Positions 7,069 through 43,829 are shown, numbered from the stretch's first letter. The stretch is DNA of 64,000 nucleotides from Enterobacteria phage RB33 (KM607001); one strand, 5' to 3'. Notes: generated from the letters alone by a model not told the origin. Translations and numbers: made by a program.

Positions 7069-7688
7069 TTATCTCATTTCAATAAAATCTACGAGTTCGG
7101 CATAGGATTTACGGAACATTACTTGATGCCCACCAATGATAACTTGGTCATCTGGTACTTCGTATACAGCAAGATAAAATCCTTTCGAAGATAATTCTTC
7201 CCGCTCTTCTCGCGTGAACCATCTCATCATATCATACTCACTAGCGAAAGCAAAATGATAAAGAGCTATAAACCATCCTGGAATATGATATTCTACTCCA
7301 ACATAATCTTTCTTGAACTTAGTATTAATTACTATATTAGCGTTTTTAACTAATAGTTTATCTTCGTGTGGTAAAGGAATTCTTTTATTATTATCGCTAT
7401 GATGCGATATTCTACTCCAACATAATCTTTCTTGAACTTAGTATTAATTACTATATTAGCGTTTTTAACTAATAGTTTATCTTCGTGTGGTAAAGGAATT
7501 CTTTTATTATTATCGCTATGATGCATAAAATTAGGTCTGTCATAACCTACGTGTAATAGCCACTCTTCACTCCATGAATCTATTATACTCCTGTACGGCG
7601 TTATTTGAACACAAAGATTTCGACGTATTGTTATAGCATCTTCATAATCAAGAATACTAAACGATGATTCAACACGATAAATTTTCAT
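7069..7688 (-). pseudogene. motB.2-position gene disrupted by a 119-bp tandem duplication (frameshift, premature TAG at 7350)
   Basis: ORF from ATG 7688 reads through copy 7406-7524 in frame, then out of frame in copy 7287-7405; removing one copy restores a 166-codon ORF ending at TAA 7069-7071. Confidence 0.6.
7287..7524. repeat. perfect tandem duplication, 2 x 119 bp
   Basis: 7287-7405 and 7406-7524 are identical base for base. Confidence 0.9.
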
Positions 7689-13542: not shown

Positions 13543-13746
13543 TCACGATTTATCCCCATAGATGTCTCTCATCAATTTAAGCGCTGAGCGTTCTAGTTTC
13601 TTTTCTTTCTCAGCACTAATCATTGATTTCATCCATTCTTCTGATTCGTTCTGCATTTCTTTATTTGCTTGTTCAACCCAACCATCGTCAATGTACATTG
13701 AGTTTGGTCTATTGAACCATTCAAACATTTTCTTCAGAACTTTCAT
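13543..13746 (-). CDS. hypothetical protein, 67 aa
   Basis: ORF in track; its start lies inside the proximal copy of the 91-bp duplication. Confidence 0.55.
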
Positions 13747-13868
13747 TTGTTTTACCTAAAACAACAGTAGGAGCATCGTCAATGTACATTGAGTTTGGTC
13801 TATTGAACCATTCAAACATTTTCTTCAGAACTTTCATTTGTTTTACCTAAAACAACAGTAGGAGCATC
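13683..13868. repeat. perfect tandem duplication, 2 x 91 bp with 4-bp CATC junction microhomology
   Basis: positions p and p+91 identical for p = 13683..13777. Confidence 0.9.
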
Positions 13869-17266: not shown

Positions 17267-17670
17267 ATTAACCTCTATTCATAAAAGCATTAAAAATTTG
17301 GTCATCAATAGATGGCGCAGTAATATTTTCTGCATCATTTAGCAAATCATTAATTTCATCAGATAGCATAACACATGTACCTTTATTTCCTGTAATTGTT
17401 ACTGCGCAATTACGAACGTTTTCTTTATTAAATTTTAGGTTAATATTTTCGTAATGAAAATCCTTTAATGCTGAATATATTTTTAAAATAAAATTGTCTT
17501 TTACTACAATAAACCCAACCTCACTATTAAAACGTGGTTCATGGAAACTGTAATAAACCTTTTCATCTATAAAATCGTATGAAATTTTTTCCATTTTTAA
17601 ATATGAAAATTCAGAACTATACATATTAACCTTTATTCATAAAAGCATTAAAAATTTGGTCATCAATAGA
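17264..17670. repeat. 49-bp direct repeat (48/49 identical) at the 3' ends of two paralogous genes
   Basis: catattaacctCtattcataaaagcattaaaaatttggtcatcaataga at 17264-17312 and 17622-17670. Confidence 0.8.
17268..17624 (-). CDS. hypothetical protein (61.1 position), 118 aa
   Basis: ORF in track; C-terminus DDQIFNAFMNRG shared with the next ORF. Confidence 0.6.
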   Translation of the reverse strand: MYSSEFSYLKMEKISYDFIDEKVYYSFHEPRFNSEVGFIVVKDNFILKIYSALKDFHYENINLKFNKENVRNCAVTITGNKGTCVMLSDEINDLLNDAENITAPSIDDQIFNAFMNRG

Positions 17671-18246
17671 AACATTTACTTTAGACTGTTTTTCTGATGG
17701 TAATTCATATCCACATATTACAATTTTGTGATCAATATCAAAATACACAGAAGCAATATGATTAATGATGTTTTCAGTAAAGTCTAAATCAACATCAATA
17801 TCTTTTTGACCACAGCCCAAAGGATAAATAATGCGAGTAATTCGATTATCTTTAACAAATATTCCACCGACATACTCTGTGCTGCGTTTAAAGTCTACAC
17901 GCCGACGAAATGAAAAATATTCAGGCTCTCTATGAGCTCGGCTCATAGGACACAACGAGTAACTAGAATAAGAGATGTCAAATCCTACGCCTTCGATATG
18001 AGCCAAAGTGTCATGATTAAACCAATTATAATCGTACGCCAAATCCATTAGATTATAATATGTAAAAGGCACCGGATTAACATCATTAGTCACAAGCATG
18101 TAATTAGCAACTGCTATAATTTCATTGTTTTTAACGAATACAAACCGTGATTGATGCGAATGACCTGGACCCGCGTTTTCACGATTAATGATATAACACT
18201 GAGACTTTTTATATTTGTAAGAATCATACTTATACATTTGAAACAT
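17626..18246 (-). CDS. hypothetical protein (61.2 position), 206 aa
   Basis: ORF in track; C-terminal half paralogous to the 118-aa ORF. Confidence 0.6.
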   Translation of the reverse strand: MFQMYKYDSYKYKKSQCYIINRENAGPGHSHQSRFVFVKNNEIIAVANYMLVTNDVNPVPFTYYNLMDLAYDYNWFNHDTLAHIEGVGFDISYSSYSLCPMSRAHREPEYFSFRRRVDFKRSTEYVGGIFVKDNRITRIIYPLGCGQKDIDVDLDFTENIINHIASVYFDIDHKIVICGYELPSEKQSKVNVSIDDQIFNAFMNKG

Positions 18247-18539
18247 TATTCACCTACCACTTCAGCAATGATATTTTTGTTATTAAAGTTTTTATCGCAA
18301 TACAGAACATAATTATACTGCATTACACCACCAGACTTAAGCTGTTTTTGCACTTCAGCTTTCATTTCAGGACGATCACGCTTAACGATATTCATAATAT
18401 CTGCTTCAATTTGAGTTTCAACCTCAGTCTGATCCGCAGTCATAGACCATTCGCACAAATCTTTATCATAACCTGCCATAGCAGGCTGAGCAGCACAAGA
18501 AGCTAAAGCAAAAATTGTGGCAAAGATAAATTTTTTCAT
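18246..18539 (-). CDS. sp: Spackle-like periplasmic protein, 97 aa with signal peptide
   Basis: start moved to MKKFIFATIFALASCAAQPAMA preceded by GAGGAG; size and position as T4 Sp. Confidence 0.65.
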   Translation of the reverse strand: MKKFIFATIFALASCAAQPAMAGYDKDLCEWSMTADQTEVETQIEADIMNIVKRDRPEMKAEVQKQLKSGGVMQYNYVLYCDKNFNNKNIIAEVVGE

Positions 18540-18600
18540 GATTAATCTCCTCAGTAGTTTATGTTTATATAGTATCTCAATTTCCAATAAAAGTAAACAG

Positions 18601-18861
18601 TTATTTTAAAACTTTTGCGTAATCACATGTTACAAACTGTTTCTCTAGCTTAACGATCTTACGAAAATACCTTTTACACTGACGAATCTGTCGCTTCGTA
18701 GGACGTACAGCAAACTTAATAAATTCCACTCGACCAAATGGAGGACTTTCTTCTGCTGGAATATCTAACACCAATTCCCACGTATCTGCAATAAGTGCTT
18801 TGAATTGCGTATTTTTCCTGACGTTATACGGAGTAGTAGGTTTAAATAAAACAATATGCAT
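18601..18861 (-). CDS. hypothetical protein (61.4 position)
   Basis: ORF in track; start moved to MHIVLFK. Confidence 0.5.
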   Translation of the reverse strand: MHIVLFKPTTPYNVRKNTQFKALIADTWELVLDIPAEESPPFGRVEFIKFAVRPTKRQIRQCKRYFRKIVKLEKQFVTCDYAKVLK

Positions 18862-18862
18862 A

Positions 18863-19045
18863 TTATCCTCGGCAATCCACTTCGCACACTTTCTTGTCAT
18901 CAATGAAAGCTTTAACTAATGCTTTATTAACTTCAGCATACTGAGTAGTAGCCCATTGAACGTCATCTTTCATCATTGTGGTTTCTTTAGTAAACATGCT
19001 TTCATTCTTAAACCACCCCATAAAAACTACCTTTACCAATTCCAT
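18863..19045 (-). CDS. dmd: Dmd-like antitoxin (inhibitor of RnlA/LsoA), 60 aa
   Basis: 60-aa ORF next to gene 41; sequence recalled as Dmd-like. Confidence 0.65.
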   Translation of the reverse strand: MELVKVVFMGWFKNESMFTKETTMMKDDVQWATTQYAEVNKALVKAFIDDKKVCEVDCRG

Positions 19046-40038: not shown

Positions 40039-40509
40039 TTAATCATGTTTCCACACCCCATCGGTATTTGACCAAAGCCGCTGATTATCTGATCCTCGCC
40101 ACAGCTTTTTGGTCGGAAGATTTTTCTCATACTTCCCATCAATAATAACATCAACATATTTAAGCATTTCTAGTTGTTTAATATCTTCAAACTTATATCC
40201 TGTCCACAACCAAATGCTTTTATTGGGATAAAGATTTTTTACTGTTTGAACAATGCAATGAATAACATCTCGGTTATCAGGATAGAGAGGGTCACCTCCA
40301 GTTATAGTCAATCCTTCTATATAATCATTATTCAAACATTCAATTAATTGCTCTAGTGTTTCACCAGTGAATGGAATACCATTTCTAGCATTCCATGTTG
40401 ATTTATTATAACACCCTTCACATTTATGCAAACAACCTGTAACGAAAAGAACGGTCCTGCAGCCAGGACCATTAATAAAATCGCAAGGATAAAATCTATC
40501 ATAATTCAT
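40039..40509 (-). CDS. nrdG: anaerobic ribonucleotide reductase activating protein NrdG (radical SAM), 156 aa
   Basis: radical-SAM-type cysteine motif CLHKCEGC; ATGA overlap with nrdD. Confidence 0.85.
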   Translation of the reverse strand: MNYDRFYPCDFINGPGCRTVLFVTGCLHKCEGCYNKSTWNARNGIPFTGETLEQLIECLNNDYIEGLTITGGDPLYPDNRDVIHCIVQTVKNLYPNKSIWLWTGYKFEDIKQLEMLKYVDVIIDGKYEKNLPTKKLWRGSDNQRLWSNTDGVWKHD

Positions 40510-42323
40510 TGGTGTTTAACCCTATGCATGATTTCTTTATTTTTGCCGAGATTAAATCCGCGTTCGTTCGGATTTCCCAAATAACCACACGTTCTTCTTA
40601 TTGTGTTCATCTTTTTAGGATCAGTTTCTCCACAAATAGAACAAACAAATCCGTTTTCAGTAGGAGTCATTTCATGGGTACTTCCGCATGTAAAACACTT
40701 ATCTACTGGCATATTAACACCAAAATAATCTAAATGTTGTGCAGCATAATCCCATACAGCCTCAAGACCTTTTAGGTTATTTTTCATATCAGGAAGTTCA
40801 ACATAAGAAATGTGACCACCTGTCGCAATGAAATGATATGGCGCTTCACGAGAAATCTTTTCAAACGGAGTAACATTTTCTTCTACTGAAACGTGGAAAC
40901 TGTTAGTGTACCAGCCTTTATCGGTAACATCTTTTACGCTTCCATATTTTTCTGTATCAAGTTTACAGAAGCGATAACAAAGGTTTTCAGCAGGAGTCGA
41001 ATACAAACTAAAAGCAAACCCAGTTCTTTCAGTCCACTGTTTAAGATGAGCATTCATTTTAGTTAAAATTTCTCGTCCAATATCACGACCGACAAGAATA
41101 TTCAATTCGTGAATACCAATGTATCCTAGGGACACTGAACTTCTACCGTTTTTAAATAACTCAATTATGTCGTCATCAGGTTTAAGACGAACCCCGAATG
41201 CACCTTCTTGGTAAAGAATAGGAGCAACAGTAGCTTTAACTCCTTTTAAGGAACTAATTCTACACATCAAAGCTTCAAAACACAAATCCATACGTTCATT
41301 GAATAATTCAACAAATTTCTGTTCGTTAAATTGTGTTCCAATATAAGAATCTAATGCAATGCGAGGAAGATTCAGTGTTACAACACCAAGATTATTACGT
41401 CCATCAAGAATTTCATTACCAGTCGAATCTTTCCATACGCTCAAGAAACTACGGCAACCCATTGGAGAAACAGGAATAGATGAACCGGTGATAGCTTTAT
41501 TATTCTTAACTGAAATAATATCAGGATACATCCTTTTGCTTGCACACTCTAGAGCAAGCTGCTTAATATCATAGTTCGGATCGTCTTTATAAAGATTAAC
41601 GCCTTCTTCAACGAACATAACAAGTTTAGGAAAAATAGGAGTTATCCCATCACGACCAAGACCTTTAATACGATTTTTCAAAATTGCTTTCTGAATCATT
41701 CGTTCAGTCCAGTCAGTTCCCGTACCAAATGTAATTGTTACAAAAGGAGTCTGTCCGTTTGAACTAAAGAGAGTATTTACTTCATATTCATAAGCTTGGA
41801 ATGCATCGTATACGTCTTTTTCTGTTTTAGATTGGGCATAATTCAGTGCATCGGCGATTTGCCATTTTTCTGCGTCCTCGATATGTTTTGCATAGGTGCG
41901 TTTAACATAAGGAGAAAGTACTTTATCTACATTCGCAAAAGTCGTTCCGCCGTATTGGTGAGAAGCAACCTGTGCGGTAATTTGTGCCATAATTGCAGTA
42001 GCAACGCCAATTGATTTAGGAGTTTCAATCTGCGCATTACCAAGCTTAAATCCGTTCTCAAGCATTCCTTTTAAATCTACTAAACAACAATTAGTAAATG
42101 GAAGAGCAGGGGAATAATCAATATCATGAAAATGAATAATTCCGCTTTCATGCGCTTTCATAATAAAAGACGGGACCTTATTTTTGGCAATGTGTTTAGA
42201 CACAATACCAGCCATAAGGTCCCGTTGAGTTGGAAAAACACGAGAATCTTTATTAGCATTCTCGTTTAAAAGGTCTTTATTAGTTTTATGAATCAATCCT
42301 TCAATTTCTTTTTCAATTGTCAT
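40506..42323 (-). CDS. nrdD: anaerobic ribonucleoside-triphosphate reductase NrdD (glycyl radical enzyme), 605 aa, uninterrupted
   Basis: 605-aa ORF; C-terminal zinc ribbon CFTCGS...CSICG and glycyl radical region. Confidence 0.9.
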   Translation of the reverse strand: MTIEKEIEGLIHKTNKDLLNENANKDSRVFPTQRDLMAGIVSKHIAKNKVPSFIMKAHESGIIHFHDIDYSPALPFTNCCLVDLKGMLENGFKLGNAQIETPKSIGVATAIMAQITAQVASHQYGGTTFANVDKVLSPYVKRTYAKHIEDAEKWQIADALNYAQSKTEKDVYDAFQAYEYEVNTLFSSNGQTPFVTITFGTGTDWTERMIQKAILKNRIKGLGRDGITPIFPKLVMFVEEGVNLYKDDPNYDIKQLALECASKRMYPDIISVKNNKAITGSSIPVSPMGCRSFLSVWKDSTGNEILDGRNNLGVVTLNLPRIALDSYIGTQFNEQKFVELFNERMDLCFEALMCRISSLKGVKATVAPILYQEGAFGVRLKPDDDIIELFKNGRSSVSLGYIGIHELNILVGRDIGREILTKMNAHLKQWTERTGFAFSLYSTPAENLCYRFCKLDTEKYGSVKDVTDKGWYTNSFHVSVEENVTPFEKISREAPYHFIATGGHISYVELPDMKNNLKGLEAVWDYAAQHLDYFGVNMPVDKCFTCGSTHEMTPTENGFVCSICGETDPKKMNTIRRTCGYLGNPNERGFNLGKNKEIMHRVKHQ

Positions 42324-42793
42324 TTTAAACTCTTTCTAAGCTGCTTCTTAAATGAAGCTATTAATTGTGTTTTGGTGTCAGATTCATTATATTCAAATCC
42401 TCTTTGAAGCATCTCGGCCATCATTTCCTCTTTTCCTAAACGAGAAAATTCCTTTGATTTATCTCCAACAAAGTTAGGGTGAATATTATTTTGGGTGTAA
42501 TCGGATTTTAAATAAGTAAGTAAATTTTCTAACCATTCAAGATAATCAACACCTTGTCCCTTTAAGCCAGAACGATTAAATTTATGCTTCATTTGACCTT
42601 CTGCGGCATTGCATAGATTACAAAGCAATCCACGTACCTTTCCTGCTTTTGGTCCATTTAATTCATGGTCATGATCAAGATGATTAGCTTGAACATCAGG
42701 ATTTAGTTCTCGTTGGCAAATTAAGCATTTACCGTTTTGTGCATTATAAAATTTCTGTTTTTCTTCTTTGTATAATTTGCCAGTCAATAACAT
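42320..42793 (-). CDS. 49: endonuclease VII (Holliday junction resolvase) gp49, 157 aa
   Basis: zinc-binding CLICQ...CNLCN and H-N-H-like core; 157 aa as T4 gp49. Confidence 0.9.
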   Translation of the reverse strand: MLLTGKLYKEEKQKFYNAQNGKCLICQRELNPDVQANHLDHDHELNGPKAGKVRGLLCNLCNAAEGQMKHKFNRSGLKGQGVDYLEWLENLLTYLKSDYTQNNIHPNFVGDKSKEFSRLGKEEMMAEMLQRGFEYNESDTKTQLIASFKKQLRKSLK

Positions 42794-42835
42794 AATAAAA
42801 CCCTTACCTTAAATAGATAAGGGTATTTATTATTT

Positions 42836-43125
42836 TTAAGTATTGTAAAACATTCGATGCAATCGTTTATACTGTCGAATCATCTTTTTAGTAGGACGAG
42901 AATAGGTTCCTACGCAAGTGGTCATATGAGGGTCCGTAGAATGTCCTTTAATAAAAAGTTTCCAAACCTTACCGCCATTTAACTTTTCAGTATAAACCAA
43001 TTCGGTTTTCATTAAAATGTCCTGTCAGAAAAAGAATTTTGAGTTTTTTCAAGTATTATAAAACATTTGATGCAATCGCTTATATTGCCGAATCATTTGG
43101 TCAGAAAAAGAATTTTGAGTTTCAA
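42836..43125. repeat. imperfect direct repeats flanking a degenerate small ORF next to pin
   Basis: ~46-bp segment at 42839-42883 and 43051-43096 (about 5 mismatches); 22-bp segment tcagaaaaagaattttgagttt at 43025-43047 and 43101-43122. Confidence 0.7.
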
Positions 43126-43534
43126 GCCATTCAATATATTCTGCCGCAGCTTGCATCAGGTTACCTTCATAGCCATCGTTATTTTCTTGCGCAGCTAATT
43201 TAGCTAATGCGTATGAAATACGTTCACCTTGAAAAGAGGCTTCAGGCTTCTGAACAACTTGATTAGTTCGCTCTACAACTTCTTCAATTTCGCCATTTTC
43301 AACGGATTCAGTATTCCACAAGCACCAATACGTAATTGGCTTATCATAGATATTAATAATCTTTCCACCAGAAAGTTCAATTTCAATAATTCCAGTATCA
43401 GGCTCTATATCATCTTCACATTCTTTTGTAAGTTCACGAACTTTAAAGACAGTACCTGCACTAAGTTCCGGCCAGTAATTACACAGCCCTGTATCAGCAC
43501 GATTAATTCTAAACCACTTATCTACTGTAATCAT
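43049..43534 (-). CDS. pin: Pin-like protein (inhibitor of host Lon protease), 161 aa
   Basis: 161 aa from ATG 43534 (track start is TTG); size and position as T4 Pin. Confidence 0.6.
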   Translation of the reverse strand: MITVDKWFRINRADTGLCNYWPELSAGTVFKVRELTKECEDDIEPDTGIIEIELSGGKIINIYDKPITYWCLWNTESVENGEIEEVVERTNQVVQKPEASFQGERISYALAKLAAQENNDGYEGNLMQAAAEYIEWLETQNSFSDQMIRQYKRLHQMFYNT

Positions 43535-43829
43535 GTCCCATCTCCATATCAATTAAGTCATTTATCGTTGGTTCATTATATACTGTTTCTTCATCAGTGT
43601 AAACCGGTTCTTCCGGCTCTGGCTCTACAGTTTCCCATCTAGCCGCCCACCAGGGTTTAACCCCGAAGCTTATTAAGTTCTTCATAATCAATCCAGGATT
43701 CTAGTCCTGATGGCAAATCAGATTCAATTTCCCAAAGAAGTTCTTCAATTTTCTGAAGACGATCTAATTCTTCAGCTGGAATAGTAACCATTGATGGAGT
43801 TCTTGATACACTAATATCGTAAATCATAT

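Follow-up and report, generated by a model that had tools for sequence, protein, structure and literature searches.

An intact TifA-family gene between pin and gene 49 of T-even phage RB32, and a probable origin of the C-terminal tail of T4-type PinA

The interval between pin and gene 49 of phage RB32 contains an intact 58-codon gene, here referred to as ORF58, which is almost certainly a selected, protein-coding member of the DUF7279/TifA family, as judged from its sequence. ORF58 is an already annotated, uncharacterised gene that is now placed as a compact member of a known family. In our overall account, to which we assign a probability of roughly 80%, ORF58 is an intact accessory TifA-family gene, the C-terminal tail of the neighbouring Pin protein would be a fossil of such a gene, and the RB32 locus would be a recombinant of two other alleles.

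The window, which is the whole 64-kb stretch of DNA analysed in this study, is 100% identical to Escherichia phage RB32 (NC_008515) over the query, and window coordinates equal the coordinates of that record plus 119. The gene order on the minus strand is nrdC, two small ORFs, 49.1, pin, ORF58, gene 49, and nrdD. The features of the pin-49 interval, its two neighbours, and a paralogue elsewhere in the window are as follows.

18601..18861, minus strand: RB32 homologue of T4 gene 61.4 (tifA), a paralogue of ORF58 (in-window profile match)
42320..42793, minus strand: gene 49 (endonuclease VII), the downstream neighbour of ORF58 (ORF listing and RefSeq annotation)
42794..42835, minus strand: gene 49 leader with a AATAAATA late-promoter-like box and a hairpin, directly 3' of the ORF58 stop
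42836..42883, minus strand: tail copy 2, the codons for MIRQYKRLHRMFYNT plus stop, forming the distal part of the Pro-Thr-capped basic helix of ORF58
42836..43012, minus strand: ORF58 (RB32ORF078c), an intact 58-aa gene (MKTELVYTEKLNGGKVWKLFIKGHSTDPHMTTCVGTYSRPTKKMIRQYKRLHRMFYNT) without internal stop and annotated as CDS
43012..43046, minus strand: non-coding 35-nt remnant of a short-type pin, from its 3' end (..TQNSFSDRTF*), identical to the intact short pin 3' end of phage SP1
43020..43023, minus strand: Shine-Dalgarno-like AGGA, 7 nt 5' of the ORF58 ATG (read from the sequence)
43024..43046, minus strand: R2, an exact second copy of the 23-nt repeat AAACTCAAAATTCTTTTTCTGAC
43049..43096, minus strand: tail copy 1, the last 15 codons plus stop of the long-type pin
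43049..43534, minus strand: pin (Lon protease inhibitor), long 161-aa allele (RefSeq annotation, profile match)
43100..43122, minus strand: R1, the first copy of the 23-nt repeat AAACTCAAAATTCTTTTTCTGAC, encoding the last codons of the Pin core (..ETQNSFSD)

Several observations concern the surroundings of this interval. A near-consensus sigma-70-type promoter (43575..43603, minus strand; TTTACA, 17-nt spacer, TATAAT; 11 of 12 consensus positions) is located inside 49.1 and upstream of pin, and might act as an early promoter of pin, ORF58 and 49. RB32ORF081c (43657..43827, minus strand) bears the RefSeq name 'antitoxin from a toxin-antitoxin system', and in Pfam it gave nothing beyond a match below threshold to the RecBCD inhibitor gp5.9 of T7 (20.3 bits against a cutoff of 24.5). 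In RB32, nrdD (40506..42323, minus strand) is a single uninterrupted ORF of 605 codons, while T4 nrdD, which is split by an intron carrying I-TevII, is annotated as two joined pieces.

When translated by coordinate, ORF58 runs on the minus strand from the ATG at 43012 to the TAA at 42836-42838 and comprises 58 sense codons, the sole stop being the terminal one. The sequence-only reading had correctly recognised this frame and had also placed an in-frame TAA at 42947-42949. The codon at these positions is AAA (Lys22), and a TAA lies at 42948-42950, out of frame across the adjoining codons ATT and AAA. The supposed interruption thus arose from a one-base miscount, and ORF58 is not broken. RefSeq lists the gene as CDS RB32ORF078c (YP_803020.1); the product is called hypothetical, and a note reads 'similar to RB69ORF087c, JS98orf087c-like, pin'. 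The AGGA preceding its start codon consists of bases that are pin codons in alleles with a short pin.

Homologues of ORF58 were found by tblastn in 357 phage records that include Tequatrovirus, Dhakavirus (JS98, QL01, VR7, CLB_P2), Mosigvirus (RB69), and Salmonella phage S16. Pairwise dN/dS against four homologues from three genera was 0.10-0.23 (PEC04, 0.16; QL01, 0.19; CLB_P2, 0.11; RB69, 0.20). Over the whole ORF, dS ranged from 0.2 to 1.8 and dN from 0.04 to 0.34, and synonymous sites were also free to vary within the part encoding the tail. These substitution patterns indicate that ORF58 is under purifying selection. The gene is missing from two allele types of Tequatrovirus (the T4 and IME339 types described below) and carries a frameshift in MLP2, O157 typing phage 3 and L015; as it is often lost or broken in relatives, it must be dispensable. 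An exhaustive HMMER search of 1.8 billion representatives yielded only nine matches. Long multi-stretch matches from the same search had no coherent Pfam domains and were discarded as spurious.

The family assignment is based on profile matches. ORF58 matched Pfam DUF7279 (PF23945) with 62.7 bits (gathering score 24.5; E = 3e-17), residues 7-56 aligning to positions 1-53 of the 53-position model, and matched phrog_3272 over its full length (E = 3e-34). Its other matches in PHROGs were two weak families of unknown function. No Pin family was matched in PHROGs, DUF7279 was the only family matched in Pfam, where Inhibitor_I24 was not hit, and NCBIfam contained no model matching ORF58, TifA or the neighbouring small ORFs. 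A profile of the ORF58 group, searched against all ORFs of the window, recovered one further gene (18601..18903, minus strand) between dmd (18863..19045) and sp (18246..18587). This gene is the RB32 homologue of tifA; it matches PF23945 with 72.5 bits (2.6e-20) and phrog_2375 at 4e-39, and its product differs little from the TifA sequences published for T4 and T6. Compared to T4 TifA, it has a one-residue insertion and a C-terminus of the T6 type (..DYAKVLK). ORF58 and the TifA homologue thus both lie far above the gathering score of PF23945 and share membership in DUF7279.

T4 gene 61.4 was renamed tifA and encodes an 85-aa inhibitor of ToxN, the endoribonuclease of the type III toxin-antitoxin system toxIN (PMC9391042). 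TifA is predicted to form a three-stranded sheet packed against a helix at the C-terminus and to have a loop of ~20 residues (PMC10853763). The loop protrudes from the sheet and has been implicated in contact with ToxN and in specificity for it (PMC9391042, PMC10853763). The helix carries a conserved Pro-Thr cap and basic residues (P53 T54 K55 R56 R59), binds RNA, and is needed for the binding and neutralisation of ToxN (PMC10853763). In our alignment, P40 T41 K42 K43 R46 of ORF58 fall on these five TifA residues within the basic helix RPTKKMIRQYKRLHR, so that the Pro-Thr cap followed by a K/R cluster (RPTK[KR]xIRQxKR) occurs in both proteins, as does a W-x-L-x-I strand. R39, P40, T41, K42, R46, K49 and R50 are invariant in the ORF58 group. 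An AlphaFold2 (AF2) model of ORF58 built with 10 homologues contained strands at residues 2-9, 15-22 and 31-37 and a C-terminal helix at 42-56, and hence the same predicted three-stranded sheet and C-terminal helix as TifA; the best model had a pLDDT of 81.7 and the other four were weak at 52-63.

ORF58 and TifA differ in several respects. ORF58 has 58 aa compared to the 85 aa of TifA and does not have the extension at the C-terminus. Strands 2 and 3 of ORF58 are connected by ~8 residues (23-30) and not by the ~20-residue loop, and ORF58 has deletions relative to TifA in the alignment. The TifA gene occupies the dmd-sp locus and belongs to PHROG 2375, whereas ORF58 (PHROG 3272) is located between pin and 49 and not beside dmd in the 61.x 'anti-TA island', the usual though not strictly defining position of characterised TifA, where the dmd-adjacent copy is a separate gene. 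The similarity between the two proteins is weak outside the last strand and the helix: a profile-profile comparison of the ORF58 group with the dmd-adjacent TifA group aligned 23 columns only (hhalign probability 84%), and structure searches did not return TifA. The family membership of ORF58 therefore rests mainly on the Pfam model and the shared motif. The homologue panel in Table S2 of PMC10853763 does not include the short pin-adjacent type that ORF58 represents, and in the literature searched we found no mention of DUF7279, RB69ORF087c or RB32ORF078c.

The end of ORF58 resembles the end of Pin, as had been pointed out from the sequence. The last 15 residues of ORF58 (MIRQYKRLHRMFYNT) and the Pin tail (MIRQYKRLHQMFYNT) agree at 14 of 15 positions, and the two tail copies are identical at 43 of 51 nucleotides if the preceding codon and the stop are counted. 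The repeat that had been noticed on both sides of the pin tail also exists; it is exact and 23 nt long (22 bp had been claimed). R1 and R2 are spaced 76 nt apart. In the 64 kb of the window, repeated 20-mers or longer form no more than nine runs, of which this is one, and that is too rare to be due to chance. Other exact repeats in the window are a tandem 119-nt unit (7287-7405, spacing 119), a 95-nt repeat (13683-13777, spacing 91), a 37-nt repeat (17276-17312, spacing 358), and several dispersed repeats of 20-33 nt. The 35-nt remnant that contains R2 ends in a TAA overlapping the ATG of ORF58, and it is the only true gene fragment in the pin-49 interval.

PinA of T4 (Inhibitor_I24) inhibits the host Lon protease, and it has been regarded as an anti-toxin-antitoxin factor because Lon is blocked (PMC10286901). 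Its long type shares the 15-residue C-terminal tail with ORF58, and pin and ORF58 adjoin each other; in the presumed ancestral arrangement the pair would be translationally coupled. However, ORF58 does not resemble the Pin core, and the tail common to both is not covered by the Pin profiles, which end at Pin residue 146 (phrog_2167) or 140 (Inhibitor_I24). Pin residues 146-161 instead match positions 43-58 of phrog_3272, the ORF58 family, and in the AF2 model of ORF58 the shared tail makes up the distal two-thirds of the C-terminal helix.

The tail is absent from Pin proteins of other genera. The Pin of RB69 (137 aa) ends ..YLERRLS*, a pin remnant in the Dhakavirus CLB_P2 ends ..FSDEVF*, and more distant Pins end ..FSSKSF*, ..FNAKSF* or ..FSDRGF*. 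The DNA downstream of outgroup pins was read for RB69, CLB_P2, O157 typing phage 3 and L015, and in each of them the small gene or a frameshifted copy, with its own tail, is located 3' of pin. In QL01, pin is missing, whereas the small gene and its tail are present. As the Pins of other genera are tailless, the Pin profiles end before the tail, and the tail occurs in QL01, we conclude that the tail is probably native to the TifA-like gene. Several lines of sequence evidence thus favour an ancestrally short Pin.

These comparisons also bear on the nature of ORF58 itself. The sequence-only reading had regarded it as a degenerate gene fragment that decayed after an old partial duplication, which would make ORF58 a pseudogene derived from the 3' end of pin. 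The similarity of the tails and the flanking repeat on which this proposal drew are real, and copies of the gene are indeed broken in MLP2 (a 2-nt deletion) as well as in O157 typing phage 3 and L015 (frameshifts). However, the RB32 frame contains no in-frame stop, its dN/dS is in the low range given above, it matches a curated family over its full length and has homologues in the 357 records, and tailed homologues exist in genera whose pin is tailless and in the pin-less QL01. Moreover, comparing the interval across T-even phages revealed a conserved intact small gene in the relatives, which refutes the fragment reading. We therefore consider a decayed remnant scarcely credible. What stands of the proposed duplication or cassette insertion is that the locus was rearranged, as attested by the repeats and by the alleles described below; its direction has to be reversed, since it was apparently pin that acquired its tail from the small gene.

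We read the pin-49 interval in 23 Tequatrovirus loci and several outgroups and distinguished four alleles within Tequatrovirus. IMG/VR contained only six pin loci, and the allele survey thus relied on GenBank phage records. The RB32-type count was obtained with a junction-specific query, the SP1/PEC04 count is the difference of 187 and 113, and the counts for the T4 and IME339 types are estimates from an evenly spaced sample of 700 matches.

SP1/PEC04 type: short pin of 148 aa (..SFSDR[T/A]F*) with the stop/ATG overlap TAATG; small gene present; about 74 records
IME339 type: short pin; small gene precisely deleted; about 70 records
T4 type: long pin of 161 aa (core plus tail); small gene absent; about 245 records
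RB32 type: long pin, followed by the 35-nt short-pin remnant; small gene present; 113 records

The ends of the short pins, DRAF* and DRTF*, are kept at the protein level with synonymous differences. Programmed frameshifting from the short pin into ORF58 at TTTTAATG was considered; there is no canonical slippery site, and the possibility was rejected because the 1-nt stop/start overlap represents ordinary translational coupling.

From this distribution we infer the following order of events. The ancestral order would have been a short pin (..FSDRxF*), followed by the TifA-like gene, often overlapping through TAATG, and then by gene 49; this order is still present in Tequatrovirus, Dhakavirus and Mosigvirus. 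A deletion of 137 nt would then have removed the body of the small gene and joined its last 15 codons in frame to pin, giving rise to the 161-aa PinA of the T4 type. If such a deletion is made in a PEC04-like allele, from after GAC CGA to the tail ATG ATT, the result is the T4 sequence except for two substitutions. Hence, the Pin tail very probably derives from a TifA-like gene by deletion and fusion. The Pin tails lack the Pro-Thr cap and K42/K43, and all of them carry R53Q. In addition, the tail of T4 Pin has R46Q and that of the AR1-type Pin has H52N; all three positions are invariant in the ORF58 group. Among themselves, the Pin tails differ by four nonsynonymous changes and one synonymous change, which is a small sample. 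This pattern is consistent with relaxed or altered constraint on the Pin tails, as would be expected of a passenger. An AF2 model of the long Pin was of low quality (pLDDT 63, and less than 50 in the tail) and is silent on whether the tail packs against the core. Within Pin, a block at residues ~115-138 (QENNDGYEGNLMQAAAEYIE; ~43121..43192, minus strand) hardly varies among Pins whose identity elsewhere is only 46%, which suggests either a functional core or a recent cross-genus exchange of this segment.

The RB32 arrangement would have formed subsequently, by recombination of a long-pin allele of the T4 type with a short-pin-plus-ORF allele of the SP1 type, in or close to the microhomology CTTGAAA that occurs both behind the long-pin tail and ahead of the repeat. 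Recombination between these two alleles would account for the 23-nt repeat and the presence of two tails. A-rich bases follow the stop of the long pin in each of the eight RB32-type loci that were sampled, and next comes AAACTCAAAATTCTTTTTCTGAC-AGGACATTTTAA or AAACTCAAAATTCTTTTTCTGAC-AAGGCATTTTAA. These sequences are the last 12 codons of a short pin, whose stop overlaps the ATG of ORF58. Apart from the length of the A-run (11 A in L14 and 6 in the others), the junction is constant across the eight loci. Its constancy, together with the occurrence of this allele in 113 records, suggests a single origin followed by spread through homologous recombination. In five of the eight loci, R1 has the ATT of T4-type pins, whereas R2 always has the AAT of SP1. 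Such a difference would be expected of copies that stem from two parental alleles; the identity of R1 and R2 in RB32 itself would then reflect a later exchange. Similarly, tail 1 shares CAA-TAT-AAG and CAA at codon 53 with the T4-type pins, and the ORF58 cassette of RB32 carries the SP1 states. SG1 combines the RB32 arrangement with a PEC04-like ORF58 allele. Taken together, these markers make it fairly probable that long-pin and short-pin-plus-ORF alleles recombined to give the RB32 arrangement.

Formally, the other alleles could also be derived from the RB32 type by single direct-repeat deletions, and the RB32 type would then be the older one within Tequatrovirus. Each of the T4, SP1 and IME339 types is indeed only one deletion away from it, with ends in or beside repeats; the distances between tail 1 and tail 2 (213 nt) and between R1 and R2 (76 nt) correspond to allele spans that differ by exactly 213/214 nt and 76/77 nt, and T4 phages are known to readily amplify and delete segments by recombination (PMC9391042). 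However, the outgroup genera have the short-pin-plus-ORF order without duplication, and unless there was a T4-type intermediate, forming tail 1 takes more steps, namely a tandem duplication and also an internal deletion. Furthermore, R1 differs from R2 in most of the sampled RB32-type phages, tail 1 has the markers of T4-type pins (CAA at codon 53, AAG) while the ORF58 cassette has those of the SP1 type, and the conservation of DRAF* and DRTF* with synonymous differences argues for old functional ends and not for deletion products. An RB32-first order is hence improbable, and we favour the recombinant origin of the RB32 type.

Remodelling of the DUF7279 genes was also observed in relatives. 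A Mosigvirus-like contig (L029, from Logan SRR20302901) encodes an independent in-frame fusion of pin with a tail (1201-1626, protein P0047), in which the Pin sequence ..YLERR is joined to FHRDFYNVY, the last nine residues of a gene of the RB69ORF087c type, across the 6-nt repeat ACGTTT. Mosigviruses have a second DUF7279 copy upstream of pin; O157 typing phage 3 and L029 carry it intact. In RB69, this upstream copy contains a frameshift (L008, 300-476), and what is left is annotated as the 38-aa RB69ORF089c. Downstream of pin, a frameshift splits the copy in O157 typing phage 3 (L009, 863-1041) and in L015, and another contig, L030, has lost it wholly; the MLP2 copy (L017, 489-611) has a 2-nt deletion. 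Some of the broken copies could be sequencing errors. In the metagenomic, Mosigvirus-like contigs L030 and L031, which have the downstream copy deleted, the upstream paralogue and pin are called as one product of 191 aa (P0046; 1201-1776), which may be either a true fusion or a gene-calling artefact. The deletion alleles thus comprise two in-frame tail fusions and two non-fusing deletions (the IME339 type and L030), which are too few to judge whether in-frame retention of the tail is selected. As far as can be read from these genomes, DUF7279 appears to be an accessory and often remodelled gene set, which fits a role in counter-defence.

Directly downstream of ORF58, the leader of gene 49 forms a stem-loop (42800-42824) that pairs with the ribosome-binding site and AUG of gene 49; the predicted fold of the leader RNA has -18.2 kcal/mol and a z-score of -3.95. 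The element is conserved in every allele read, with the box being TATAAATA in RB69. Control of T4 late genes, including gene 49, by hairpins at the ribosome-binding site was reportedly described by Barth et al. in 1988. T4 late genes that lie within early transcripts are masked by such hairpins and are expressed from a late promoter inside the hairpin (PMC2988022). The stem-loop and the AATAAATA box 3' of ORF58 resemble this system as it occurs at gene 49, soc, e and I-TevI, but the element belongs to gene 49 and, for the pin-49 interval, only fixes the 3' boundary. It also explains why every deletion ends just upstream.

The proximity of the leader raises the question of whether ORF58 is kept for a DNA or RNA role in gene 49 expression, through the late promoter, the hairpin or coupling, the peptide itself being functionless. 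The ORF58 stop lies directly 5' of the conserved hairpin that masks the ribosome-binding site and AUG of gene 49, the translated frame ends at one and the same spot in the T4, SP1/PEC04 and RB32 types, and two independent deletions left the tail in frame. In the IME339 type, the pin stop is 9 nt further upstream than the ORF58-type stop position. However, the peptide stays conserved while the synonymous sites are free to vary, across the entire ORF as well as in the tail, and because of this free variation the leader probably does not explain the conservation of ORF58. Moreover, the body of ORF58 is far from the leader and yet conserved across genera, and paralogues of the family occur at loci without gene 49 downstream. 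A purely cis-acting role is thus very unlikely, and the selected unit is most plausibly the ORF58 peptide.

Based on its family, we infer that ORF58 may be a small RNA-binding counter-defence factor, whose target need not be ToxN. The chances are about even that it binds RNA via the Pro-Thr-capped helix and acts against a host toxin or another host defence. ToxN itself is a doubtful target, as ORF58 lacks the specificity loop and divergent TifA homologues neutralised none of the toxins tested (PMC9391042, PMC10853763). The genomic context is similar for TifA and ORF58: in T-even phages, each is encoded by a small accessory gene whose neighbour is another anti-toxin-antitoxin gene (dmd in the case of TifA, pin in that of ORF58). 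It is suggestive that the coupled short pin and mini-TifA gene could form a pair in which both members are directed against toxin-antitoxin systems. More speculatively, and with a clearly lower likelihood, mini-TifA might trap a host RNase toxin other than the tested ToxN proteins and, with pin, constitute a second coupled anti-toxin-antitoxin module that shapes the host range of T-even phages. If this were true, Pin would block the Lon-dependent release of toxin while mini-TifA traps the RNase toxin, and the fossil C-terminal helix of T4 PinA may still add affinity for nucleic acids or a target.

Our results link a widespread 'hypothetical' T-even gene (RB32ORF078c, RB69ORF087c, phrog_3272) to the characterised TifA family, place this TifA-like gene beside pin, which is likewise regarded as an anti-toxin-antitoxin gene, and provide a concrete candidate for counter-defence screens. 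They also suggest that the last 15 residues of T4 PinA lie outside the ancestral Pin fold and appear to be a captured piece of the neighbouring gene; such a chimeric C-terminus matters for construct design and for the interpretation of PinA-Lon structures. The pin-49 locus would also be a clean natural example of recurrent microhomology-mediated deletion, fusion and re-acquisition among co-infecting phages.
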